DNA from: Escherichia coli
GTDB lineage: Bacteria; Pseudomonadota; Gammaproteobacteria; Enterobacterales; Enterobacteriaceae
Direction: 5' to 3' (one strand)
Length of the DNA stretch: 64,000 nt
NCBI RefSeq assembly: GCF_048403405.1
Contig: NZ_CP183129.1
The position numbers were made by a program, and so were the translations under genes. The notes beneath the pieces are model-generated. The model worked only from the letters and a program-made list of their open reading frames with translations. It was not told where the DNA came from and did no database searches. Below are positions 1 through 22,409 of this stretch, piece by piece; the stretch's first letter is position 1; each line of letters starts with the position of its first letter.

Positions 1-1
1 G

Positions 2-235
2 GTGGCTGAGCGGATGGGAATTGCCCCACAACAGATGCTGTTTGTTGGCGACTCACGCAATGATATTCAGGCAGCAAAAGCGGCAGGTTGCCCATCAGTT
101 GGCTTAACCTACGGATATAACTACGGCGAGGCTATCGATCTCAGCCAGCCTGATGTAATTTATCAGTCTATAAATGACCTTCTGCCCGCATTAGGGCTTC
201 CGCATAGCGAAAATCAGGAATCGAAAAATGACTAA
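2..235 (+). CDS. gph: phosphoglycolate phosphatase, C-terminal part (5' end outside window)
   Basis: ORF runs to window start; HAD-type C-terminal sequence; stop overlaps trpS start as in E. coli. Confidence 0.8.
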
Positions 236-1232
236 GCCCATCGTTTTTAGTGGCGCACAGCCCTCAGGTGAATTGACCATTGGTAACTACATGGGTGCGC
301 TGCGTCAGTGGGTAAACATGCAGGATGACTACCATTGCATTTACTGTATCGTTGACCAACACGCGATCACCGTGCGCCAGGATGCACAGAAGCTGCGTAA
401 AGCGACGCTGGATACGCTGGCCTTGTATCTGGCTTGTGGTATCGATCCTGAGAAAAGCACCATTTTTGTTCAGTCCCACGTGCCGGAACATGCGCAGTTA
501 GGCTGGGCATTGAACTGCTATACCTACTTCGGCGAACTGAGCCGCATGACGCAGTTTAAAGATAAATCTGCGCGTTATGCCGAGAACATCAATGCTGGTC
601 TGTTTGACTATCCGGTGCTGATGGCTGCGGACATCCTGCTGTATCAAACTAATCTGGTACCGGTGGGTGAAGACCAGAAACAGCACCTGGAACTGAGCCG
701 CGATATCGCCCAGCGTTTCAACGCGCTGTATGGCGAGATCTTTAAAGTGCCGGAGCCGTTTATTCCGAAATCTGGCGCGCGCGTAATGTCGCTGCTGGAG
801 CCGACCAAAAAGATGTCCAAGTCTGACGATAACCGCAATAACGTTATCGGCCTGCTGGAAGATCCGAAATCGGTAGTGAAGAAAATCAAACGCGCGGTCA
901 CCGACTCCGACGAGCCGCCGGTAGTTCGCTACGACGTGCAGAACAAAGCGGGCGTTTCCAACCTGCTGGATATCCTTTCTGCTGTAACGGGCCAGAGCAT
1001 TCCGGAACTGGAAAAACAGTTCGAAGGCAAGATGTATGGTCATCTGAAAGGTGAAGTGGCTGATGCCGTTTCCGGTATGCTGACTGAATTGCAGGAACGC
1101 TATCACCGTTTCCGCAACGATGAAGCCTTCCTGCAACAGGTGATGAAAGATGGCGCGGAAAAAGCCAGCGCGCACGCTTCCCGTACGCTAAAAGCGGTGT
1201 ACGAAGCGATTGGTTTTGTGGCGAAGCCGTAA
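228..1232 (+). CDS. trpS: tryptophan--tRNA ligase
   Basis: 334 aa ORF, class I aaRS, matches E. coli TrpS length and sequence from memory. Confidence 0.95.
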
Positions 1233-1246
1233 TTTAACATTAATGC

Positions 1247-1275
1247 CAAAAACCGGGGAAACCCGGTTTTTTTAT
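1247..1275 (+). terminator. rho-independent terminator after trpS
   Basis: GC hairpin ccgggg/ccccgg followed by a T-run. Confidence 0.6.
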
Positions 1276-1392
1276 CCTCTTTTTGCAATAATCCGAAAAA
1301 ATGTGAAGCGCCTCGCCGTTTCCACATCTCGCAGTTGCCACTTATCTTCATTTTTATGAAGATATAAATATTCACTTTATTGAAAATTTACT

Positions 1393-2298
1393 ATGCGTCG
1401 AACGTTTATCAAAAAAGAAGGCGTCGTCATCACGACACTGGCCCGTTATTTGTTGGGTGAAAAGTGCGGTAATCGACTGAAAACCATAGATGAGCTGGCA
1501 ACTGAATGCCGTTCATCCGTTGGCCTGACGCAGGCCGCGTTGAAAACGCTGGAATCAAGCGGAGCGATACGGATAGAACGCCGTGGGCGTAATGGCAGTT
1601 ATCTGGTGGAAATGGATAACAAAGCGCTGCTGAGTCATGTGGATATCAACAATGTGGTGTGCGCGATGCCCTTGCCCTATACCCGTTTGTACGAAGGCCT
1701 GGCGAGCGGATTGAAAGCTCAGTTTGATGGTATTCCTTTTTACTATGCGCACATGCGCGGCGCGGATATTCGCGTGGAGTGTTTACTTAACGGCGTGTAT
1801 GACATGGCGGTTGTTTCCCGACTGGCGGCGGAAAGTTATCTCACGCAAAAAGGGTTATGCCTCGCGCTGGAGCTGGGGCCGCATACCTACGTTGGCGAGC
1901 ACCAGTTGATTTGCCGTAAAGGCGAGTCCGCAAACGTGAAGCGCGTGGGGCTGGATAACCGTTCGGCGGATCAGAAAATCATGACCGATGTCTTTTTTGG
2001 CGATAGTGATGTGGAACGTGTCGATCTCTCTTATCACGAGAGTTTACAACGCATTGTTAAAGGCGATGTTGATGCGGTGATCTGGAACGTGGTGGCGGAA
2101 AACGAACTGACCATGCTGGGATTAGAAGCGACGCCGCTCACAGACGATCCGCGATTTTTACAGGCCACCGAAGCCGTAGTTTTGACGCGAGTCGATGATT
2201 ACCCAATGCAACAATTGCTGCGTGCAGTTGTTGATAAACAGGCCCTGCTTGCCCATCAACAACGAGTGGTCAGTGGGGAACAGGAACCCAGTTATTAA
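1393..2298 (+). CDS. yhfZ: uncharacterised protein with N-terminal HTH-like region (putative regulator)
   Basis: 301 aa ORF, first gene of the yhf/php cluster. Confidence 0.8.
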   Translation: MRRTFIKKEGVVITTLARYLLGEKCGNRLKTIDELATECRSSVGLTQAALKTLESSGAIRIERRGRNGSYLVEMDNKALLSHVDINNVVCAMPLPYTRLYEGLASGLKAQFDGIPFYYAHMRGADIRVECLLNGVYDMAVVSRLAAESYLTQKGLCLALELGPHTYVGEHQLICRKGESANVKRVGLDNRSADQKIMTDVFFGDSDVERVDLSYHESLQRIVKGDVDAVIWNVVAENELTMLGLEATPLTDDPRFLQATEAVVLTRVDDYPMQQLLRAVVDKQALLAHQQRVVSGEQEPSY

Positions 2299-2314
2299 AC
2301 GAAAGGCATCTGAA

Positions 2315-2677
2315 ATGGAAACCAGACTCAACCTGCTTTGCGATGCAGGCGTTATTGATAAGGACATCTGCAAAGGCATGATGCAGGTCGTCAATGTCCT
2401 GGAAACAGAGTGCCATCTACCGGTGCGCAGTGAGCAAGGAACGATGGCGATGACACATATGGCGAGTGCACTGATGCGCAGTCGCCGTGGTGAAGAAATA
2501 GAGCCGCTGGATGACGAATTGCTGGCAGAGCTGGCGCAATCCACTCACTGGCCAGCCATTTTACAATTGCATCAGGTGTTGTTGAAGGAATTCGCGCTGG
2601 AAGTTAACCCGTGTGAAGAAGGCTATTTGCTGGCCAACCTTTATGGATTATGGATGGCTGCTAACGAAGAGGTTTGA
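2315..2677 (+). CDS. yhfY: uncharacterised protein YhfY
   Basis: Internal ATG (METRLNLL...) with upstream gaaagg RBS, 17 nt after yhfZ stop; 120 aa. Confidence 0.7.
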   Translation: METRLNLLCDAGVIDKDICKGMMQVVNVLETECHLPVRSEQGTMAMTHMASALMRSRRGEEIEPLDDELLAELAQSTHWPAILQLHQVLLKEFALEVNPCEEGYLLANLYGLWMAANEEV

Positions 2678-2760
2678 AGCTCCCGACAAATCCACGTCGC
2701 ATAATCTAAATATTCAGAAAAATGAATATTTAATTCAAGGAACAGAAACGAGGCAACAAG

Positions 2761-3924
2761 ATGTTTGTAGAAGCATTGAAACGCCAGAACCCGGCGCTAA
2801 TTTCCGCCGCACTAAGCTTGTGGCAAAAGGGCAAGATCGCCCCGGACAGCTGGGTGATCGACGTGGATCAGATACTGGAAAACGGTAAGCGGCTGATTGA
2901 GACGGCGCGGCTTTACGGCATTGAACTGTATCTGATGACTAAGCAGTTTGGTCGTAATCCGTGGCTGGCGGAAAAACTGCTGCCATTAGGCTACAGCGGC
3001 ATTGTGGCGGTGGATTACAAAGAGGCGCGAGTCATGCGCCGCGCCGGTTTGCCGGTGGCGCATCAGGGGCATCTGGTACAAATCCCTTGTCATCAGGTTG
3101 CTGACGCCGTTGCACAGGGCACCGACGTCATCACCGTGTTTACTCTCGACAAAGCGCGGGAAGTTTCTGCGGCAGCGGTGAAGGCCGGACGTGTGCAGTC
3201 TGTGCTGCTCAAAGTTTATAGCGACGATGATTTTCTTTATCCGGGGCAGGAGAGCGGTTTTGTACAGCATTCGCTGCACGAGGTGGTTGCTGATATTAAG
3301 AAACTGCCGGGGCTGCATTTAGCCGGACTAACCCATTTCCCTTGCCTGCTTTGGGATGAGGCTGCCGGGAAAGTTTTGCCGACACCGAATCTTCACACGC
3401 TGGTACAAGCACGGGATCAACTGGCGAAATCTGGTATTGCGATTGAGCAACTGAACGCGCCTTCAGCGACCAGCTGCACTTCGCTGCCATTGCTGGCGGA
3501 ATACGGTGTGACTCATGCCGAACCCGGTCATGCGCTGACGGGCACTATTCCGGCAAACCAGCAGGGCGATCAGCCTGAACGTATCGCGATGCTCTGGTTA
3601 AGTGAAATCTCCCATCATTTTCGTGGCGACAGCTACTGCTACGGCGGCGGTTACTACCGTCGTGGTCACGCGCAACATGCGCTGGTGTTTACGCCAGAAA
3701 ATCAAAAGATTACTGAAACCAATCTCAAAACTGTGGATGACAGCAGTATCGACTACACCCTGCCGCTGGCAGGCGAGTTTCCGGTAAGCAGTGCAGTAGT
3801 GCTCTGTTTTCGCACGCAGATTTTTGTCACCCGTAGCGATGTGGTGCTGGTGTCTGGTATTCATCGTGGCGAACCGGAAATCGTCGGTCGTTATGACAGC
3901 CTCGGCAACCCTCTGGAGGCGTAA
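2761..3924 (+). CDS. yhfX: alanine-racemase-like PLP-dependent enzyme (putative)
   Basis: 387 aa ORF in conserved cluster. Confidence 0.8.
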   Translation: MFVEALKRQNPALISAALSLWQKGKIAPDSWVIDVDQILENGKRLIETARLYGIELYLMTKQFGRNPWLAEKLLPLGYSGIVAVDYKEARVMRRAGLPVAHQGHLVQIPCHQVADAVAQGTDVITVFTLDKAREVSAAAVKAGRVQSVLLKVYSDDDFLYPGQESGFVQHSLHEVVADIKKLPGLHLAGLTHFPCLLWDEAAGKVLPTPNLHTLVQARDQLAKSGIAIEQLNAPSATSCTSLPLLAEYGVTHAEPGHALTGTIPANQQGDQPERIAMLWLSEISHHFRGDSYCYGGGYYRRGHAQHALVFTPENQKITETNLKTVDDSSIDYTLPLAGEFPVSSAVVLCFRTQIFVTRSDVVLVSGIHRGEPEIVGRYDSLGNPLEA

Positions 3925-5151
3925 ATGGCGCGATTTGTGGTGTTAGTGATTGATAGCTTTGGCGTAGGGGCAATGAAAGATGTCACGTTGGTGCGTCCGC
4001 AGGATGCCGGGGCGAATACCTGTGGTCACATCCTGAGCCAGTTGCCGCATTTGCAGCTATCAGCGCTGGAGAAGCTGGGGCTAATCAACGCATTGGGTTA
4101 TGCACCAGGTGATATGCAACCGTCAGATTCCGCAACCTGGGGGGTGGCAGAGCTGCAACATGAAGGTGGCGATACCTTTATGGGGCATCAGGAAATTTTA
4201 GGCACGCGCCCGTTACCGCCGCTGCGGATGCCTTTTCGCGATGTGATTGACCGTGTTGAGCAGGCATTAGTATCCGCCGGTTGGCAGGTGGAGCGCCGTG
4301 GCGATGATCTGCAATTTCTGTGGGTCAATCAGGCGGTTGCGATTGGCGATAATCTCGAGGCGGATTTAGGCCAGGTCTATAACATCACCGTCAATCTCTC
4401 TGTGATCTCTTTTGACGACGCAATCAAAATTGGTCGTATCGTGCGTGAGCAGGTACAGGTCGGTCGGGTCATTACATTTGGCGGCCTGTTAACTGACAGT
4501 CAACGCATTCTCGATGCCGCAGAAAGTAAAGAAGGGCGCTTTATTGGCATTAATGCGCCGCGTTCAGGCGCTTATGACAACGGCTTCCAGGTCGTGCATA
4601 TGGGCTACGGTGTTGATGAAAAAGTGCAGGTGCCGCAAAAACTGTATGAAGCGGGCGTGCCAACCGTGCTGGTGGGTAAGGTGGCGGATATCGTCAGCAA
4701 TCCTTATGGCGTGAGCTGGCAAAACCTGGTGGATAGCCAGCGGATTATGGATATCACCCTCGACGAATTTAACACGCATCCGACGGCGTTTATTTGCACC
4801 AATATCCAGGAAACCGACCTCGCTGGTCACGCGGAAGACGTCGCACGTTATGCCGAACGTTTGCAGGTCGTTGACCGTAACCTTGCCCGGCTTATTGAGG
4901 CGATGCAGCCAGATGATTGCCTGGTCGTGATGGCGGATCACGGTAACGATCCGACCATTGGTCACAGCCACCATACCCGCGAAGTGGTGCCAGTGCTGGT
5001 TTATCAGCAAGGGATGGTCGCTACGCAGCTCGGTGTGCGCACCACGCTTTCTGATGTGGGGGCTACCGTGTGTGAATTTTTCCGTGCGCCACCGCCACAA
5101 AATGGTCGCTCTTTTCTTTCCTCCCTCCGGTTTGCAGGAGACACCCTATGA
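3925..5151 (+). CDS. yhfW: phosphopentomutase-like metalloenzyme (putative mutase)
   Basis: 408 aa ORF; contains DHGNDPT motif typical of the phosphopentomutase family. Confidence 0.8.
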
Positions 5152-6026
5152 GTATTGATCCGACGGGTTACACCCTCGCCCATGAGCATCTGCATATTGA
5201 TCTCTCCGGCTTTAAAAACAACGTGGACTGCCGCCTTGATCAGTATGCGTTCATTTGCCAGGAGATGAACGACCTGATGGCCCAGGGCGTGCGTAATGTG
5301 ATTGAGATGACCAACCGTTACATGGGGCGAAATGCGCAATTTATGCTCGATGTGATGCACGAAACTGGCATCAACGTGGTGGCCTGTACCGGTTATTACC
5401 AGGATGCGTTTTTCCCGCAACATGTGGCGACCCGCAGCGTACAGGAACTGGCGCAGGAGATGGTCGATGAAATTGATCAGGGTATCGATGGCACGGAACT
5501 GAAAGCCGGGATCATCGCGGAGATCGGCTCCAGCGAAGGGAAGATTACGCCGCTGGAAGAGAAGGTGTTTATTGCCGCCGCGCTGGCACATAACCAGACC
5601 GGACGCCCGATCTCCACGCATACGTCGTTCAGCACGATGGGGCTGGAACAACTGGCTCTGTTGCAAGCCCACGGAGTTGATCTTTCGCGCGTCACCGTTG
5701 GTCACTGCGATCTGAAAGACAACCTCGACAACATTTTGAAGATGATCGATCTCGGCGCGTATGTGCAGTTCGACACCATCGGCAAGAACAGTTACTACCC
5801 GGACGAAAGGCGCATTGCGATGCTCCACGCGCTACGTGACCGTGGTTTGCTGAACCGCGTCATGCTGTCGATGGATATTACGCGCCGCTCCCATTTAAAA
5901 GCCAACGGTGGTTATGGCTATGACTATTTATTGACCACCTTTATTCCGCAATTGCGCCAGTCAGGATTCAGTCAGGCCGATGTGGATGTGATGTTACGTG
6001 AAACTCCCTCTCAATTTTTCCAATAA
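5148..6026 (+). CDS. php: phosphotriesterase homology protein (amidohydrolase superfamily)
   Basis: 292 aa ORF; N-terminal HEHLHID metal-binding HxH motif. Confidence 0.85.
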
Positions 6027-6036
6027 GGACAGACTC

Positions 6037-6390
6037 ATGAAAAAGATTGGTGTTGCAGGCTTACAGCGTGAGCAGATTAAAAAAACCATTGAAGCGACGG
6101 CTCCTGGCTGTTTTGAAGTTTTCATTCACAACGACATGGAAGCGGCAATGAAAGTCAAATCCGAGCAACTGGATTACTACATCGGCGCGTGTAATACCGG
6201 TGCGGGCGCGGCATTGTCGATTGCCATCGCGGTGATTGGCTATAACAAAAGTTGCACCATTGCCAAACCAGGCATTAAAGCGAAAGACGAACATATCGCC
6301 AAAATGATCGCCGAAGGGAAAGTGGCGTTTGGGCTTTCCGTTGAGCACGTCGAACACGCGATTCCGATGCTGATTAACCATCTGAAATAA
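6037..6390 (+). CDS. yhfU: small uncharacterised protein YhfU
   Basis: 117 aa from internal ATG with aaggac RBS right after php stop. Confidence 0.7.
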   Translation: MKKIGVAGLQREQIKKTIEATAPGCFEVFIHNDMEAAMKVKSEQLDYYIGACNTGAGAALSIAIAVIGYNKSCTIAKPGIKAKDEHIAKMIAEGKVAFGLSVEHVEHAIPMLINHLK

Positions 6391-6401
6391 AAGGCACGAC
6401 T

Positions 6402-7706
6402 ATGGATCTGTATATTCAGATTATCGTGGTGGCGTGCCTGACGGGTATGACATCGCTTCTGGCGCATCGCTCGGCGGCTGTTTTTCATGACGGTATCCGC
6501 CCGATCCTGCCACAACTGATTGAAGGCTATATGAACCGTCGCGAGGCGGGGAGTATCGCTTTTGGTCTGAGCATTGGTTTTGTGGCCTCGGTGGGGATCT
6601 CGTTTACCCTGAAAACCGGGCTGCTCAACGCATGGTTACTCTTTCTTCCTACCGATATCCTCGGCGTACTGGCGATAAACAGCCTGATGGCGTTTGGTCT
6701 TGGCGCTATCTGGGGCGTGTTGATCCTTACTTGCCTGTTGCCGGTAAACCAGCTGCTGACCGCGCTACCGGTGGATGTATTAGGTAGCCTGGGGGAATTA
6801 AGCTCACCGGTGGTTTCAGCTTTTGCACTGTTCCCGTTGGTGGCGATTTTCTACCAGTTTGGCTGGAAGCAAAGTCTGATCGCCGCCGTGGTGGTACTGA
6901 TGACCCGTGTGGTGGTAGTGCGCTATTTCCCGCATCTCAATCCGGAATCCATCGAAATCTTTATTGGCATGGTGATGCTGCTGGGGATCGCGATAACTCA
7001 CGACCTGCGTCATCGTGATGAAAATGATATTGATGCCAGCGGGCTTTCGGTGTTTGAAGAACGCACGTCGCGGATTATCAAAAACTTACCGTATATCGCT
7101 ATTGTCGGGGCGCTGATTGCCGCCGTTGCCAGCATGAAGATTTTTGCTGGCAGTGAAGTGTCGATCTTCACACTGGAGAAAGCATATTCCGCAGGCGTAA
7201 CGCCGGAACAATCACAAACGCTGATTAACCAGGCAGCTCTGGCGGAATTTATGCGCGGGCTGGGTTTTGTACCGTTGATTGCCACCACCGCGTTAGCCAC
7301 TGGTGTGTATGCAGTTGCGGGCTTTACCTTTGTTTATGCGGTGGGCTATCTCTCGCCGAATCCGATGGTTGCAGCGGTATTAGGCGCAGTGGTTATTTCG
7401 GCGGAAGTCCTGCTGCTTCGTTCGATCGGCAAATGGCTGGGGCGCTACCCGTCGGTGCGTAATGCGTCGGATAACATCCGTAACGCCATGAATATGCTGA
7501 TGGAAGTGGCGTTGCTGGTCGGTTCGATTTTCGCAGCAATTAAAATGGCGGGTTATACCGGATTTTCTATCGCAGTTGCCATTTACTTCCTCAACGAATC
7601 CCTGGGCCGTCCGGTACAGAAAATGGCGGCACCGGTCGTGGCAGTAATGATCACCGGTATTCTGCTGAATGTTCTTTACTGGCTTGGCCTGTTCGTTCCG
7701 GCTTAA
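6402..7706 (+). CDS. yhfT: integral membrane protein, putative transporter
   Basis: 434 aa, highly hydrophobic with many predicted TM segments. Confidence 0.8.
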   Translation: MDLYIQIIVVACLTGMTSLLAHRSAAVFHDGIRPILPQLIEGYMNRREAGSIAFGLSIGFVASVGISFTLKTGLLNAWLLFLPTDILGVLAINSLMAFGLGAIWGVLILTCLLPVNQLLTALPVDVLGSLGELSSPVVSAFALFPLVAIFYQFGWKQSLIAAVVVLMTRVVVVRYFPHLNPESIEIFIGMVMLLGIAITHDLRHRDENDIDASGLSVFEERTSRIIKNLPYIAIVGALIAAVASMKIFAGSEVSIFTLEKAYSAGVTPEQSQTLINQAALAEFMRGLGFVPLIATTALATGVYAVAGFTFVYAVGYLSPNPMVAAVLGAVVISAEVLLLRSIGKWLGRYPSVRNASDNIRNAMNMLMEVALLVGSIFAAIKMAGYTGFSIAVAIYFLNESLGRPVQKMAAPVVAVMITGILLNVLYWLGLFVPA

Positions 7707-7717
7707 GGAAGGCACCT

Positions 7718-8803
7718 ATGAAGACGTTTCCTCTGCAAAGCCTGACGATTATTGAGGCGCAGCAAAAGCAGTTTGCGCTGGTGGACACGATTTGCCGCCA
7801 TTTTCCTGGTAGCGAATTTCTTACCTGCGGTGATTTGGGATTAACGCCGGGACTGAATCAACCGCGCATTACCCAGCGTGTGGAACAGGTGCTGGCTGAT
7901 GCATTTCACGCACAGGCTGCGGCGCTGGTACAGGGCGCGGGTACTGGCGCGATCCGTGCGGCGTTGGCGGCTTTGCTCAAACCGGGGCAGCGTCTTCTGG
8001 TGCATGACGCGCCGGTTTACCCGACGACTCAGGTCATTATTGAGCAGATGGGGCTGACGCTTATCACTGCTGATTTCAATGACCTGTTGGCACTGAAGCA
8101 GGTTGTCGACGAGCAACAACCAGATGCCGCGCTGGTGCAGCATACGCGCCAGCAGCCGCAGGACGGGTACATTCTGGCAGATGTGCTGGCAACGTTGCGC
8201 TCGGCTGGCGTTCCTGCATTAACCGATGACAACTATGCGGTGATGAAGGTAGCGCGAATTGGCTGCGAATGCGGGGCAAATGTCTCGACTTTTTCCTGCT
8301 TCAAGCTGTTTGGGCCGGAGGGTGTTGGCGCGGTGGTAGGCGATGCTGATGTTATTAACCGTATTCGCGCCACGCTCTACTCCGGCGGCAGCCAGATTCA
8401 GGGCGCTCAGGCGTTGGAAGTCTTGCGTGGGCTGGTGTTTGCGCCAGTGATGCACGCGGTGCAGGCGGGGGTATCTGAACGGTTGCTGGCCTTGCTCAAC
8501 GGTGGTGCAGTTCCGGAAGTGAAAAGCGCCGTCATTGCCAATGCACAGTCGAAGGTGTTGATTGTCGAGTTTCATCAGCCGATTGCCGCCAGAGTGCTGG
8601 AAGAGGCGCAAAAGCGCGGTGCCTTGCCTTACCCGGTTGGTGCAGAGTCGAAATATGAAATTCCACCGCTCTTTTATCGACTTTCCGGAACGTTTCGCCA
8701 GGTGAATCCGCAACTCGAACATTATGCGATTCGTATTAACCCAAATCGCAGCGGTGAAGAGACGGTGCTGCGGATTTTGCGTGAGAGTATTGCCAGTATT
8801 TAA
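7718..8803 (+). CDS. yhfS: uncharacterised enzyme, putative PLP-dependent
   Basis: 361 aa ORF, last gene of the cluster. Confidence 0.8.
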   Translation: MKTFPLQSLTIIEAQQKQFALVDTICRHFPGSEFLTCGDLGLTPGLNQPRITQRVEQVLADAFHAQAAALVQGAGTGAIRAALAALLKPGQRLLVHDAPVYPTTQVIIEQMGLTLITADFNDLLALKQVVDEQQPDAALVQHTRQQPQDGYILADVLATLRSAGVPALTDDNYAVMKVARIGCECGANVSTFSCFKLFGPEGVGAVVGDADVINRIRATLYSGGSQIQGAQALEVLRGLVFAPVMHAVQAGVSERLLALLNGGAVPEVKSAVIANAQSKVLIVEFHQPIAARVLEEAQKRGALPYPVGAESKYEIPPLFYRLSGTFRQVNPQLEHYAIRINPNRSGEETVLRILRESIASI

Positions 8804-8843
8804 TCTTGTGCATGATGTTTTCGAAAAGAATGCAGAAATAAAT

Positions 8844-8869
8844 ACGCCCTCGGGTAACCCCGAGGGCGT
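8844..8869. terminator. bidirectional hairpin between convergent yhfS and yhfL
   Basis: Perfect inverted repeat acgccctcggg-taac-cccgagggcgt. Confidence 0.55.
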
Positions 8870-8909
8870 CAGGCAATTAAACCGGTGTTAGCCGATTTCT
8901 GTCAGAGAC

Positions 8910-9077
8910 TTACTGTGCAGTAGGACCGCAACCGCCAATGATTTTAGAAATAGAAATTGCCGGGTGCAGCAGGTAGTCGTAAGAGCAGTTCTTATCACGG
9001 TTTTCAATATGACCAGTACATGCAGTTAACGTAGCCAGTACTGCGCCTACCAGTGCAACTTTAATAAATTTGTTCAT
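8910..9077 (-). CDS. yhfL: small lipoprotein
   Basis: 55 aa minus-strand ORF MNKFIKVALVGAVLATLTAC... with LTAC lipobox; below ORF-track length cutoff. Confidence 0.75.
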   Translation of the reverse strand: MNKFIKVALVGAVLATLTACTGHIENRDKNCSYDYLLHPAISISKIIGGCGPTAQ

Positions 9078-9293
9078 TTACATTCCCTATGTATTATATA
9101 TTAATTAATATTCATTGATTATATGAATATAAGCAGACTGCTCATTAAGAACGATACAGGAATATTCAATTAGCGTCAGTGAGCGATTGATTTAATTTTG
9201 TAAGTCGCTGTAACGGTGAATATAACCCATTAGCAGACAATATTTATTAAGGGGGTATCTTTTTATCTGCTGAATATATAAAGAGAGTTGTAA

Positions 9294-9320
9294 ACGAAAA
9301 AGGCCAGACTTCTCTGGCCC
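9294..9320 (-). terminator. terminator after cysG
   Basis: Hairpin ggccaga/tctggcc followed by a T-run on the minus strand. Confidence 0.5.
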
Positions 9321-9328
9321 TGGTTAAA

Positions 9329-10702
9329 TTAATGGTTAGAGAACCAGTTCAATTTATCGCGCAGGCCAACAACCCGACCAATAATAATTAGCGATGGACT
9401 GTTCATTTGCTGCGCCAGTTCGCCCAGCTGCGTGAGCGTACCGTCAATCACGCGCTGCGTGACTGCCGTTCCGTTTTCGACAATTGCCACCGGCATTTCG
9501 CCAGGCATACCGTGTTCAATCAGCTTTTGCTGAATAGTCGCAGCCTGATTCAGCCCCATATAAAACACCAGCGTCTGTTTTTCTGCCGCCAGGTTTTCCC
9601 AGTCCAGTTCGCCACCGGTTTTTAAGTGTCCGGTAATTAAGCGTACGCTCTGGGCATAATCGCGATGCGTGAGCGGAATACCCGAATAGGCAGAGCAACC
9701 AGAAGCTGCGGTAATACCCGGAACCACCGAGAACGGAATACCCGCGTTGCACAGTGTTTCCAGCTCTTCGCCACCACGGCCAAAAATAAACGGATCGCCA
9801 CCTTTCAGCCGCACCACGCGTTTGCCTTTTTGCGCTTCCCGCAGCAGGATCTGGTTTATCTCTTCCTGCGGTACGCAGTGGTATCCCGCGCGTTTGCCGA
9901 CGAAAACGCGATCCGCATCGCGGCGTACCAGATTCATAATATCGTCAGAAACCAGACGGTCGTAGACCACCACATCTGCCTGCTGAATTTGTTGCAGTCC
10001 TTTTAGTGTCAGCAGCCCGGCATCGCCCGGACCTGCGCCAACCAGCACCACTTCACCGCGATGGTCGAGCGGTTCGTTGATTAACTGTTCGGTCGTTTCA
10101 GTAATGGCTTTCTGATCGTTGTTTGCCAGCGACTGCGCCAGGCGGTCATTAACGAACAGTTTTTCCCAGAAACGGCGACGCTCACCCATCGTGGCGAACT
10201 GTTGTTTCACTCGCCCGCGTAATTGCCCGGCGTATTTCGCCACCTGGCCCAGATGCAACGGCAGCAGTGATTCAAGTTTTTCGCGTAACAGGCGCGCCAG
10301 AACCGGAGAGGTGCCGCCAGAGGAGACCGCGACCATTAGCGGTGAGCGGTCAATAATCGACGGCATAATAAAGCTGGCGGCTTTCGGCGCATCGACCACG
10401 TTACAGAAGATGCGACGAGCTTCAGCGGCTTCACTGACGCGCTGGTTAAGCGCGTCATCATCCGTCGCAGCAATTGCCAGCCAGCAGGTGTCGAGAAGGC
10501 TTTCATCAAATGGCCCTTCGACGAGGGTTAACATGCCTGCATCTGCCCATGCGGTGAACTGTGGAATAAACGCTAATGCATTCACCGTTAAGCGAGCGCC
10601 TGCGTCTAACAGCAACCTTGCTTTGCGTTCCGCGACATCACCACCGCCGACAATCAGACAGTCGCGATCGCGTAATTGGCAAAATATAGGCAAATGATCC
10701 AC
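9329..10702 (-). CDS. cysG: siroheme synthase
   Basis: 457 aa ORF, matches E. coli CysG. Confidence 0.95.
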
Positions 10703-21776: not shown

Positions 21777-22409
21777 TTAACGAGTGCCGTAAACGACGAT
21801 GGTTTTACCGTGTGCGGAGATCAGGTTCTGATCTTCCAGCATCTTCAGAATGCGTCCCACGGTTTCACGAGAACAGCCGACAATCTGACCGATTTCCTGA
21901 CGGGTAATTTTGATTTGCATACCGTCCGGGTGAGTCATAGCATCCGGTTGTTTTGCCAGGTTCAGCAGAGTCTGTGCAATGCGGCCCGTCACGTCGAGGA
22001 ACGCCAGGTTGCCCACTTTCTCTGAAGTGACTTGCAGGCGACGCGCCATCTGTGCAGACAGACGCATCAGAATGTCCGGGTTTACCTGAATCAATTGGCG
22101 AAATTTTTTGTACGAAATTTCAGCCACTTCACAGGCGGTTTTCGCACGTACCCATGCGCTACGTTCCTGGCCCTCTTCAAACAGGCCCAGTTCGCCAATA
22201 AAATCACCCTGATTCAGATAGGAGAGGATCATTTCTTTACCCTCTTCGTCTTTGATCAGCACTGCCACAGAGCCTTTAACGATGTAGTACAGCGTTTCCG
22301 CTTTTTCACCCTGGTGAATAAGCGTGCTCTTGGATGGGTACTTATGAATGTGGCAATGAGACAAGAACCATTCGAGAGTCGGGTCTGTTTGCGGTTTGCC
22401 AAGCACCAT
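21777..22409 (-). CDS. crp: cAMP receptor protein
   Basis: 210 aa, identical to E. coli CRP as recalled. Confidence 0.97.

Follow-up and report, generated by a model that had tools for sequence, protein, structure and literature searches.

A conserved eight-gene yhf cluster of Escherichia coli with a possible role in the inducible breakdown of a phosphorylated sugar derivative that bears an amino group

Within the 64 kb stretch of Escherichia coli DNA analysed here (the window), eight open reading frames, all on the + strand, occupy exactly positions 1393–8803 and correspond to yhfZ, yhfY, yhfX, yhfW, php, yhfU, yhfT and yhfS. The region is 100% identical to that of E. coli MS 69-1 (NZ_CP146675.1), from which the RefSeq gene names were taken, and these agree with the co-directional eight-gene cluster described in a first-pass annotation. 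The genes and their orphan status were previously known; four of the proteins have solved structures labelled 'uncharacterized' and, as had been stated before, no substrate for the cluster is named in the literature searched (full text). The inferences new here concern the probable two-unit control, with its boxes and CRP-like site, the age of the module, the fold of YhfU and its adjacency to YhfT, the rarity of the YhfT family, the motifs of YhfW, the pocket of Php and the purifying selection on all eight genes. The features are as follows.

1248..1271, + strand: trpS intrinsic terminator, a 10-bp GC stem with 100% complementary arms (inverted repeat I3) followed by TTTTTTT
1302..1317, + strand: CRP-like site TGTGA-N6-TCGCC, upstream of yhfZ
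1343..1364, + strand: O1, operator-like palindrome TATCTTCAT-N4-ATGAAGATA with core TTCA-N6-TGAA, conserved across genera
1366..1389, + strand: O2, operator-like box AAATATTCA-N6-TGAAAATTT, ending 4 nt 5' of the yhfZ ATG
1393..2298, + strand: yhfZ, GntR-type helix-turn-helix regulator with a YhfZ_C effector domain (NCBIfam YhfZ_full)
2315..2677, + strand: yhfY, stand-alone PRD-domain protein of 120 aa (TIGR03582, Pfam PRD)
2707..2732, + strand: O3, operator-like palindrome TAAATATTCA-N6-TGAATATTTA in the yhfY–yhfX spacer, arms 100% complementary
2761..3924, + strand: yhfX, alanine-racemase-like PLP enzyme of fold type III, forming a separate family (Ala_racemase_N plus YhfX-like_C; PDB 4KBX)
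3925..5151, + strand: yhfW, phosphopentomutase-like phosphotransferase of the alkaline-phosphatase superfamily (PRK12383, 735 bits)
5148..6026, + strand: php, PTE-family binuclear-metal hydrolase (PRK09875; PDB 1BF6, 4LEF)
6037..6390, + strand: yhfU, DUF2620, RpiB/LacAB-fold protein with a Cys52-x-Thr54-Gly55-x-Gly57 loop
6402..7706, + strand: yhfT, polytopic membrane protein of a rare family (own Pfam family)
7718..8803, + strand: yhfS, fold-type I PLP enzyme of the YhfS family (YhfS-like_C; PDB 4J8L)
8844..8869, no strand assigned: perfect 11-bp GC-rich hairpin between convergent yhfS and yhfL (terminator scan and sequence)

From yhfX to yhfS the intergenic distances range from −4 to 11 nt. 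Read directly from the sequence, yhfX abuts yhfW (0 nt, TAA immediately followed by ATG), yhfW overlaps php by 4 nt (ATGA), and the php/yhfU, yhfU/yhfT and yhfT/yhfS junctions measure 10, 11 and 11 nt; a Shine–Dalgarno-like motif precedes the start codon at all five. At the 5' end, yhfZ and yhfY are separated by 16 nt and yhfY and yhfX by 83 nt, the sole long gap in the cluster. The yhfW/php overlap had been described correctly, but the 1 nt said to separate yhfX from yhfW is 0 nt here; in K-12-like strains these two genes overlap by 1 nt. The trpS terminator insulates the cluster from upstream transcription. The hairpin at 8844..8869, which has a T-rich tail on the minus-strand (yhfL) side only, likely marks the end of the transcription unit.

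O3 is a perfect 10+10 palindrome whose core recurs twice immediately 5' of yhfZ, and three of the four TTCA-N6-TGAA matches in the window fall in these two control regions, compared with 1.2 expected per whole 64 kb. All three boxes are conserved among 12–13 aligned enterobacterial loci, O3 being nearly invariant in 13 loci within a spacer that is otherwise not conserved. A box of the same type lies 29–91 nt upstream of yhfZ in distant loci and travels with this gene into distant lineages. O3 is likely the control point of the yhfX–yhfS unit. The 83-nt spacer containing it, together with an operon table reproduced in PMC4448311 that groups php, yhfS, yhfT, yhfU, yhfW and yhfX in a single operon and leaves out yhfZ and yhfY, indicates that there are probably two regulated units, yhfZY and yhfXW-php-yhfUTS, rather than the single operon first proposed. 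The TGTGA half-site upstream of yhfZ is invariant in 12 enterobacterial loci, and comparison with the CRP consensus TGTGA-N6-TCACA suggests that 1302..1317 is a CRP site.

The helix-turn-helix-like N-terminus previously noticed in YhfZ is consistent with its score of 374 bits against the curated GntR-family model YhfZ_full (cut-off 260). PDB entry 2OZZ covers residues 74–301, and yhfZ has a dN/dS of 0.028 relative to a K-12-like strain. YhfY matches TIGR03582 with a score short of the model cut-off (E 6.8e-6) and Pfam PRD with an E value of 0.022; His48, Ala52 and Arg55 do not vary among 12 homologues with identities down to 21%. YhfZ would bind the TTCA-N6-TGAA boxes O1, O2 and O3 and be released from them by the substrate or an intermediate bound at its C-terminal domain. 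Through its invariant His48, the single-PRD YhfY might make this switch respond to whether the sugar phosphotransferase system is phosphorylated, with activation by CRP through the conserved TGTGA site.

The cluster combines two paired regulators with an unusual membrane transporter and five enzymes; it is real, conserved and under selection. The neighbourhood analysis suggested in the first-pass annotation covered about 40 enterobacterial loci from some 15 named genera, most of which have the order seen here between trpS and cysG. In distant lineages the genes are clustered with their order shuffled, giving three gene orders across unrelated bacteria; the module is ancient and its arrangement far beyond chance. 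All eight genes show dN/dS values of 0.008–0.20 relative to a K-12-like strain and are under purifying selection, and at least 80% of the 8.2-kb stretch is held by 5057 of 5426 complete E. coli genomes. The yhfS gene is a facultative member: it is present in distant Z-Y-U-T-php-S-X-W clusters, and in several lineages it is missing or secreted phosphatases stand in its place.

The HEHLHID motif of Php and the DHGNDPT motif of YhfW, both reported earlier, are present. The closest non-self solved structure to the C-terminal half of Php is the lactonase Lmo2620 (3PNZ; E 3.7e-22). Phospho-sugar lactonases of the same Pfam family as Php, namely Lmo2620/Bh0225 (3PNZ) and MS53_0025/Mag6390 (3MSR, 3OVG), hydrolyse pentono-1,4-lactone-5-phosphates. 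YhfX, YhfW, YhfU and YhfT are not known to be partners in those systems. Lys242 and Arg275 of Lmo2620, which are said in work by Xiang and colleagues from 2012 to bind the substrate phosphate, align with Lys213 and Arg246 of Php, whereas the other two of the four pocket residues are not shared, Php having Ser215 in place of Lys244 and His249 in place of Tyr278. Part of the Php pocket resembles a phospho-sugar lactonase pocket, although Php scores only 96.5 bits against the curated phospho-furanose lactonase model, which has a cut-off of 630. The lactonase activity of the Mycoplasma enzymes MS53_0025/Mag6390 is cited in PMC10971088.

It is very improbable that the cluster serves organophosphate detoxification or phosphonate degradation with Php acting as a phosphotriesterase. 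Php does belong to the phosphotriesterase Pfam family, and YhfW, a member of the alkaline-phosphatase superfamily, has a weak match to PhpG, an enzyme of phosphonate natural-product biosynthesis (E 1.3e-5). However, the score of Php against the OPH model (99.7 bits) is far under the cut-off of 500, the genes conserved alongside it encode sugar- and amino-type enzymes, and the control region resembles that of a catabolic sugar operon. Genes for C–P lyase, phosphonatase or phosphonate transporters are absent from every related locus. Neither phosphonates, which had been put forward as candidate substrates, nor organophosphates are favoured.

The catalytic motifs of YhfW, HTRE among them, align with those of Bacillus cereus phosphopentomutase (PPM), which upholds its description as phosphopentomutase-like, whereas approximately residues 100–235, between the motifs, align weakly. 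The matching segment of PPM forms the substrate-binding cap. YhfW also falls under the cut-offs of the DeoB models (142 versus 341 and 179 versus 256).

YhfU, for which the first-pass annotation offered no interpretation, has the fold of ribose-5-phosphate isomerase B (RpiB) and keeps its Cys-x-Thr-Gly-x-Gly loop, with Cys52 and Thr54 aligning with RpiB Cys66 and Thr68. The loop residues show little or no variation among 15 homologues with identities down to 35%. Taken alone, the sequence similarity to RpiB falls short of significance (E 0.012 with hhalign, 0.4–0.9 with HMM), and there is no Pfam LacAB_rpiB match. YhfU is also shorter (117 versus 149 residues) and lacks Asp9-His10 and the C-terminal helix of RpiB. 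Its gene, unlike those of RpiB/LacAB, adjoins a membrane-protein gene, yhfT, in nearly every locus, distant lineages included.

Nucleoside or pentose salvage would account for this pair of enzymes, yet it is an unlikely explanation of the cluster. Extracellular nucleotides would be dephosphorylated and a nucleoside-like compound taken up through YhfT, after which YhfW, as a phosphopentomutase, would convert the liberated pentose-1-phosphate to the 5-phosphate and YhfU, as an RpiB-type isomerase, would yield a ketose phosphate. These two steps are consecutive in known metabolism, an NCBI model names YhfW phosphopentomutase and all its catalytic motifs are kept, and both the fold and the catalytic loop of RpiB are found in YhfU. 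In three genera, genes for secreted acid phosphatases, the e(P4)-type 5'-nucleotidase and PhoC, lie 28–40 nt downstream of yhfT on the same strand, and in locus L051 an Rbs/Ara-type ABC transporter is found beside YhfT. Against salvage, no nucleoside phosphorylase, hydrolase or kinase occurs in any locus examined, Php and the two PLP enzymes are left unexplained, YhfW departs from PPM and DeoB as described, YhfU is without the RpiB phosphate-binding residues, and E. coli already has deoB and rpiA/rpiB.

YhfT forms its own Pfam family and has no relatives among solved structures; its model consists almost entirely of helices, in line with the polytopic membrane protein recognized earlier, and it is presumed to be a permease. 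Since a second transporter lies beside it in some loci, YhfT need not be the importer. The cluster encodes no kinase, which leaves the source of a phosphate unaccounted for unless it is already on the substrate at entry or comes from a phosphotransferase system (PTS). YhfT and YhfU could together form a new group-translocating uptake system, with YhfU as an EIIB-like phospho-cysteine carrier and YhfT as an EIIC-like channel, which would provide the phosphate that lacks a source and account for the PRD protein with its invariant His. The invariant Cys of YhfU in a glycine-rich loop and the presence of PTS EIIB domains among its weaker fold matches are compatible with this arrangement. It is nevertheless quite unlikely, as the cluster contains no EIIA and the Cys ends strand 3 (residues 47–52), as in RpiB, whereas in EIIB and low-molecular-weight phosphatases the Cys comes after strand 1.

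The earlier assignment of YhfX and YhfS as PLP enzymes is supported by domain matches: YhfX combines Pfam Ala_racemase_N (3.3e-21) with a YhfX-like_C domain, and YhfS matches YhfS-like_C, Aminotran_1_2, Aminotran_5 and Cys_Met_Meta_PP. Lys61 of YhfX is invariant; its structure (4KBX) is labelled 'uncharacterized' and its nearest characterized structures reach E values of about 1e-3 only. Since both proteins are remote from every characterized PLP enzyme, their chemistry is guessed.

The alanine-racemase fold of YhfX and the aminotransferase-like fold of YhfS would suit a cluster that handles an amide or peptide from the cell wall, or else a derivative of a D-amino acid, a reading that is rather doubtful overall. 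Here, a secreted or periplasmic hydrolase would free a fragment for uptake, Php, as an N-acyl amidohydrolase like mammalian PTER, would cut amide bonds with a compact amidase where one is present, and YhfX and YhfS would racemize and transaminate the freed amino acid. A compact amidase-signature protein that retains the invariant Lys and Ser of the signature is indeed encoded between yhfT and php in four loci (L114, L121, L124 and L126) and, in L129, a short way upstream of yhfZ. A 768-residue 'Amidase domain-containing protein' of Clostridium citroniae in AlphaFold DB shows a match to YhfT across roughly half its length, suggesting a YhfT–amidase fusion. Two clusters contain secreted PBP4B/class-C beta-lactamase-fold proteins, the PepT tripeptidase adjoins one cluster, and in one case a gene of the Orn/Lys/Arg-decarboxylase family comes after the YhfT gene. 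Mammalian PTER, an N-acetyltaurine/N-acetyl-beta-alanine amidohydrolase, is in the same Pfam family as Php. It hydrolyses N-acetyltaurine, which shows that amides of small anionic amines can be cleaved by members of the family, and like Php it has a Glu among its metal residues, E169 being listed as a metal contact (PMC11374699). Eukaryotic PTER carries a helical insertion that bacterial phosphotriesterases commonly lack (PMC12873775). However, the PTER-like structures 3K2G (E 1.8e-15) and 9EFA (E 1.3e-14) are more distant from the C-terminal half of Php than is the lactonase 3PNZ. Neither the amidase nor the secreted hydrolases occur in the clusters of enterobacteria and Vibrio, and no role is left for two sugar-phosphate-type members of the invariant core, YhfW with its intact mutase motifs and the RpiB-fold YhfU.

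The reading that we favour, tentatively, is that the yhf locus is a catabolite-controlled, substrate-inducible scavenging pathway for a phosphorylated, amino-bearing sugar derivative, into which import and stepwise catabolism of a phosphorylated or amino-sugar-like compound, as first suggested, would fit. The substrate most likely has a sugar-like skeleton, probably pentose- or aldonate-like, to which a phosphate ester and an amino or N-acyl group are attached. A phosphate ester is a recurring theme in the related loci, with phosphatases after yhfT in three genera and a Cof-type HAD phosphatase after yhfW in L048. A sugar or amino-sugar context is provided in relatives by a cellobiose-type PTS EIIC that adjoins the cluster and in L046 has a YhfZ box ahead of it, by the Rbs/Ara-type transporter and by a NagB glucosamine-6-phosphate deaminase encoded after yhfW. 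In the favoured pathway YhfT would act as the permease, judging from its helical model, rarity and context, with the adjacently encoded YhfU as its obligate cytoplasmic partner, perhaps in physical contact. From its fold and loop, YhfU would probably perform an aldose–ketose type proton transfer on the incoming molecule. Php might then open a lactone or strip an acyl group from a substrate held in its phosphate-type anion pocket, and YhfW would shift the phosphate between two hydroxyls via a phospho-threonine enzyme, like phosphopentomutase. YhfX, plus YhfS where present, could epimerize, eliminate or transfer the amino group by PLP chemistry, and the products would enter pentose-phosphate or glycolytic metabolism. 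Several observations weigh against the favoured reading, among them the lack of a kinase, the non-significant sequence similarity of YhfU to RpiB, the remoteness of YhfX and YhfS from characterized PLP enzymes and the second transporter beside YhfT in some loci. The RpiB N-terminal Asp-His and C-terminal arginine helix, which have roles in sugar phosphate binding, are absent from YhfU, which cannot bind a sugar phosphate in the RpiB manner. The amidase, PBP4B-like secreted hydrolases and tripeptidase of variant loci speak for a substrate with an amide or peptide part and not simply a sugar.

In K-12-like strains the frlABCDR fructoselysine operon directly adjoins yhfS, but a connection of the cluster to glycated amino acids, earlier named among candidate substrates, is not supported by this neighbour. 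The present strain, E. albertii and the other genera lack frl and have yhfL or cysG immediately after yhfS, so that the adjacency reflects a strain-level insertion without functional meaning. The EF_0829–EF_0839/AHA_3910–3917 cluster defined by TIGRFAMs contains a PRD protein, a small glycine-rich SFCGS protein, two membrane proteins, a SelA-like PLP enzyme, an amidohydrolase and an aldolase. YhfU and YhfT do not match its models even at E values up to 10, and the yhf cluster differs in having no aldolase. The model for its PRD protein, TIGR03582, is the sole family match of YhfY (score under the cut-off). In composition the two clusters are parallel: each combines a PRD-only protein and a protein of about 120 residues whose loop is Cys-Gly-rich with a membrane component, an amidohydrolase and a PLP enzyme.

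The eight genes yhfZ, yhfY, yhfX, yhfW, php, yhfU, yhfT and yhfS form the cluster described in the first-pass annotation: the open reading frames have the same coordinates, and RefSeq gives the same genes in the order trpS, yhfZ, yhfY, yhfX, yhfW, php, yhfU, yhfT and yhfS, followed by yhfL and cysG on the opposite strand. Of the two junctions singled out in that annotation, the overlap of yhfW and php is as claimed, whereas yhfX and yhfW are not 1 nt apart but directly adjoining. A Shine–Dalgarno-like motif is present at all five of the junctions that were read directly (yhfX/yhfW through yhfT/yhfS).

1248-1271: clean trpS terminator, preceding the cluster
1393-8803, + strand: the yhfZ-yhfS cluster
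yhfZ/yhfY junction: 16 nt gap
yhfY/yhfX junction: 83 nt gap
yhfX/yhfW junction: 0 nt, TAA followed by ATG, read directly
yhfW/php junction: 4-nt overlap, read directly
php/yhfU junction: 10 nt gap, read directly
yhfU/yhfT junction: 11 nt gap, read directly
yhfT/yhfS junction: 11 nt gap, read directly
8844-8869: perfect GC-rich hairpin, after the cluster

The 1200-9400 stretch is 100% identical to NZ_CP146675.1 (the E. coli MS 69-1 chromosome), and at least 80% of it is present in 5057 of 5426 complete E. coli genomes. Between trpS and cysG, most of the approximately 40 enterobacterial loci (about 15 named genera) have this gene set in unchanged order, and dN/dS relative to a K-12-like strain ranges over the eight genes from 0.008 (yhfT) to 0.20 (yhfX). 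This retained order and the low dN/dS indicate that the cluster genes are functional.

Two of the gene products resemble regulators. YhfZ passes the curated full-length GntR-type model NF041241 (374 bits against a cut-off of 260) and its homologues combine HTH_41 and YhfZ_C domains, which bears out the HTH-like N-terminus proposed earlier; its C-terminal domain is that of PDB entry 2OZZ. YhfY is probably a stand-alone PRD domain; its family matches are weak (Pfam PRD, E 0.022; TIGR03582, below its cut-off), but homologues as distant as 21% identity all share its His48, Ala52 and Arg55. Enterobacteria have an asparagine in place of the second canonical PRD histidine, which is retained in two comparison loci, L048 and L051. 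The 64-kb window contains four copies of a TTCA-N6-TGAA core (the 'box'), where 1.2 would be expected, and three of these are inside two control regions, the leader before yhfZ and the yhfY-yhfX spacer.

1302-1317: TGTGA-N6-TCGCC site
1347-1360: first box core before yhfZ (O1)
1371-1384: second box core before yhfZ (O2)
2713-2726: box core in the yhfY-yhfX spacer (O3), within a perfect 10+10 palindrome

The boxes and the TGTGA-N6-TCGCC site are conserved across 12–13 enterobacterial loci, while the surrounding spacer shows no conservation. The same box lies 29–91 nt upstream of yhfZ in the distant loci L044, L104, L122 and L123; in L035 it precedes yhfZ by 44 nt and in L033 it precedes yhfY by 70 nt. 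L033, L035 and L123 also have it in the spacer before yhfX. From these sequences we infer that the box is a candidate YhfZ operator and that the locus may comprise two regulated units, yhfZY and yhfXW-php-yhfUTS. This division agrees with a published operon table that lists php, yhfS, yhfT, yhfU, yhfW and yhfX together, without yhfZ and yhfY (PMC4448311). The earlier proposal of a single operon thus holds for the tightly packed yhfX-yhfS unit, but yhfZY is probably separate, given the boxes in both control regions and the published table. In one further locus, L046, a PTS EIIC gene of the cellobiose/lactose family adjoins the cluster, and a YhfZ-type box (ATTCA-N6-TGAAT, 5529-5542) separates it from yhfW, suggesting that this transporter could belong to the same regulon in that organism.

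A scan for sigma-70 promoters gave fewer sites than shuffled controls and none on the + strand in the two control regions; the promoters are therefore weak or activator-dependent. An Rfam search of window positions 1-10000 at E up to 0.1 gave no match, so a riboswitch or similar RNA in either control region was rejected; in the riboswitch-candidate tables of PMC4448311 the operon appears only as a distant neighbour of candidates. The fourth match to the box core (22305-22318, TTCACCCTGGTGAA) differs from the three yhf boxes in its GC-rich spacer and is probably fortuitous. The trpS-yhfZ gap (1233-1392 in the window; 9034-9322 in L002, a K-12-like E. coli locus) is about 130 nt longer in K-12-like strains. 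An element upstream of yhfZ has been classed as a BIME/REP repeat with a possible attenuator function (PMC2965389); we assume that it corresponds to this extra stretch of about 130 nt. The repeat is missing from the window.

The PLP-enzyme assignments of YhfX and YhfS given in the first pass are supported for both proteins. YhfX (PDB entry 4KBX) combines an alanine-racemase N-terminal domain (Pfam Ala_racemase_N, 3.3e-21) with a family-specific C-terminal domain, and its Lys61, the PLP lysine of fold-type III, is invariant. Every characterized fold-type III enzyme is nevertheless remote: the Orr model gives 31 bits against a cut-off of 480, and a profile search of the PDB reached alanine racemase at E 7.5e-4 and D-threonine aldolase at E 2.6e-3. 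YhfS (PDB entry 4J8L) is a fold-type I PLP enzyme with weak links to Cys/Met and class V families, and a search for its homologues returned only close enterobacterial sequences and nothing on function.

Php has the PTE fold with an HxH motif at its N-terminus (HEHLH), consistent with the metal-dependent hydrolase recognized from HEHLHID in the first pass; PDB entries 1BF6 and 4LEF are essentially identical to it in sequence. The closest other structure to its C-terminal half is a Listeria phospho-sugar lactonase, Lmo2620 (PDB entry 3PNZ). Lys213 and Arg246 of Php align with Lys242 and Arg275 of Lmo2620, so that two of the four pocket residues K242, K244, R275 and Y278, which we take to bind phosphate, are kept, the others being S215 and H249. 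Php is well below the cut-off for phospho-furanose lactonases (NF045706, 96.5 bits against 630). The breakdown of an organophosphate or phosphonate, another conceivable role for a cluster with a PTE-fold enzyme, is considered very improbable.

YhfW had been described as phosphopentomutase-like. In an alignment to the Bacillus cereus phosphopentomutase (PDB entry 3M8W) it keeps the N-terminal metal-ligand Asp, the Thr nucleophile, DHGNDP and HTRE, so the description is sound at the level of the catalytic motifs; the segment between the motifs aligns weakly, and the protein falls under the DeoB equivalog cut-offs (TIGR01696, 142 bits against 341; PRK05362, 179 against 256), passing only its own model, PRK12383 (735 against 254). 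Salvage of nucleosides or pentoses, in which YhfW would act as a phosphopentomutase, seems an improbable role for the cluster.

YhfU matches a single Pfam family, DUF2620. Its AlphaFold model, built from a 15-sequence alignment, has a pLDDT of 94.7 and an RpiB fold. At the sequence level the match to RpiB is weak (HMM E 0.4–0.9), but in these weak HMM/profile alignments Cys52-x-Thr54-Gly55-x-Gly57 of YhfU, in the loop after strand 3, is in register with Cys66-x-Thr68-Gly69-x-Gly71 of E. coli RpiB, whose sequence was verified against PDB entries 1NN4 and 2VVR. Cys52, Gly55 and Gly57 are invariant in 15 homologues and Thr54 is nearly so. In contrast to RpiB, YhfU has neither the N-terminal Asp-His (it starts MKKIGVAGLQ, compared with MKKIAFGCDH) nor the C-terminal Arg/His helix (it ends at residue 117), elements that bind the sugar phosphate in RpiB. 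The cysteine position, which in EIIB is at the end of strand 1, and the fold ranking led to rejection of YhfU as a PTS EIIB phospho-carrier, and a PTS-like role for this protein is considered highly unlikely.

YhfT belongs to a rare family, with 305 cluster representatives among 1.84 billion proteins. Its model (pLDDT 95.9) resembles no characterized transporter in fold or in sequence, and the AFDB50 matches listed appear to belong to YhfT's own family. With E values up to 10 allowed, neither YhfU nor YhfT shows a sequence link to the EF_0830-0832 families. The gene yhfU is immediately upstream of yhfT in almost all loci examined, also where no other cluster gene is present. A doubtful proposal is that the pair could form a new uptake device, in which a permease would work with an obligate cytoplasmic RpiB-fold subunit that traps the cargo by isomerization, whereas the PTS does so by phosphorylation. 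The device would feed an undescribed pathway of Php, YhfW and YhfX, to which YhfS or an amidase may be added, and its substrate would be a phosphorylated compound that is amino-sugar-like or derived from the cell envelope. If so, this compound would be scavenged by many gut and environmental bacteria.

A scan of a genome collection with YhfT as a single-protein query returned only enterobacterial relatives, and an alignment of YhfU served as the query in a metagenome scan. Three architectures recur among the loci.

Z-Y-X-W-php-U-T-S: enterobacteria
Z-Y-php-U-T-X-W: a Vibrio and other contigs
Z-Y-U-T-(compact amidase)-php-S-X-W: contigs of Firmicute-like appearance

The core therefore consists of YhfY, Php, YhfU, YhfT, YhfX and YhfW, usually with YhfZ, and YhfS is a frequent but dispensable member. 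Because the Z-Y-U-T-php-S-X-W clusters also contain yhfS orthologues, the gene is not confined to the Enterobacteriaceae. Pluralibacter, Shimwellia and an Enterobacter-like strain have, in place of yhfS and immediately behind yhfT, genes for secreted acid phosphatases of class C (e(P4)) and class A (PhoC), with an OmpL-like porin next in L033; a Cof-type phosphatase follows yhfW in L048. Five loci contain an unusually short (320–346 aa) amidase-signature protein with an intact Lys/Ser/Ser signature, a family that occurs within the Firmicute-like forms of the cluster.

L033, 11339-12968: phosphatases after yhfT
L035, 11341-13044: phosphatases after yhfT
L037, 2803-3648: phosphatases after yhfT
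L121, 1822-2862: compact amidase
L124, 11648-12661: compact amidase
L126, 3728-4687: compact amidase
L114, 2543-3583: compact amidase
L129, 7517-8491: compact amidase

A 768-aa Clostridium citroniae protein named amidase-domain-containing (AlphaFold DB G5HJH7) matches YhfT over about half its length, suggesting a YhfT–amidase fusion. PBP4B-like secreted hydrolases are present in two loci, and NagB and PepT in a single locus each. In three loci YhfT has a sugar ABC transporter or a PTS EIIC gene as its neighbour.

K-12-like E. coli have the fructoselysine operon frlABCDR inserted after yhfS and before yhfL. The strain studied here lacks it, and megablast alignments to genomes with frl stop precisely where yhfS ends (window 8804-9328; L002 16733-22465). 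E. albertii and some other Escherichia loci pass straight from yhfS to yhfL, as do other genera to yhfL or cysG. Thus, frl is a variable insertion, and a functional link with the cluster was rejected on its absence here and in other genera.

Among the core enzymes, those with informative closest relatives (PTE lactonases, phosphopentomutase and RpiB) consistently indicate phosphorylated furanose-type sugars. For the two PLP enzymes the substrate must carry an amino group, and the accessory genes are repeatedly phosphatases and amide or peptide hydrolases; no kinase is present in the cluster. Our tentative preference is for an inducible pathway that scavenges a sugar-phosphate derivative bearing an amino or N-acyl group, which would enter through the YhfT-YhfU module. 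The main competing explanation, itself unlikely, is that the cluster degrades a cell-wall-type amide or a derivative of a D-amino acid and that Php works in the manner of PTER; it leaves YhfW and YhfU unexplained. The probability not taken up by the sugar-phosphate pathway and the alternatives discussed here belongs to other chemistry.

The genes, their order and the orphan status of the cluster are already on record. A full-text literature search found no substrate named for the cluster, in line with the earlier statement that none is established, and no dedicated study; mentions of yhfW, yhfS, yhfZ and yhfV in screens are incidental. Five inferential points are undocumented to our knowledge: that YhfU resembles RpiB, that no solved structure is related to YhfT, that the box is a candidate YhfZ operator, that core and accessory genes can be told apart, and that the cluster is independent of frl. 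The cluster is among the larger E. coli gene blocks that are conserved, selected and structurally characterized yet functionless on record, crystal structures of four of its proteins having been available for more than ten years. It is a well-defined and long-standing gap rather than a surprise in the sequence, and it has become more tractable: a candidate pair of regulator and operator could serve in an inducer reporter, core genes are distinguished from accessory genes, a candidate catalytic residue of YhfU can be mutated and the cluster is dissociated from the neighbouring frl. Solving it would assign eight genes together, giving the YhfT, DUF2620, YhfX and YhfS families a first function, and would probably bring to light a nutrient, or a product of cell-envelope turnover, on which enteric, marine and Firmicute-like bacteria draw.

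Several smaller features of the locus were also observed. Relative to L002, dS is raised inside the cluster (0.29 for yhfS and 0.21 for yhfZ, compared with 0.083 for trpS and 0.094 for cysG in the flanks), and an identity of 99% or more across the region is reached by only six of about 5400 genomes, which suggests old alleles or recombination at the locus. Many E. coli assemblies contain a 292-aa YhfS product, covering 62% of the protein, with one such sequence on 63 contigs, so that in some lineages the gene may have been truncated repeatedly or its start called differently. Low G+C content (0.40) marks window positions 9001-9500, between yhfL and the end of cysG, a patch that includes a very AT-rich segment (9080-9140) upstream of the small lipoprotein gene yhfL.
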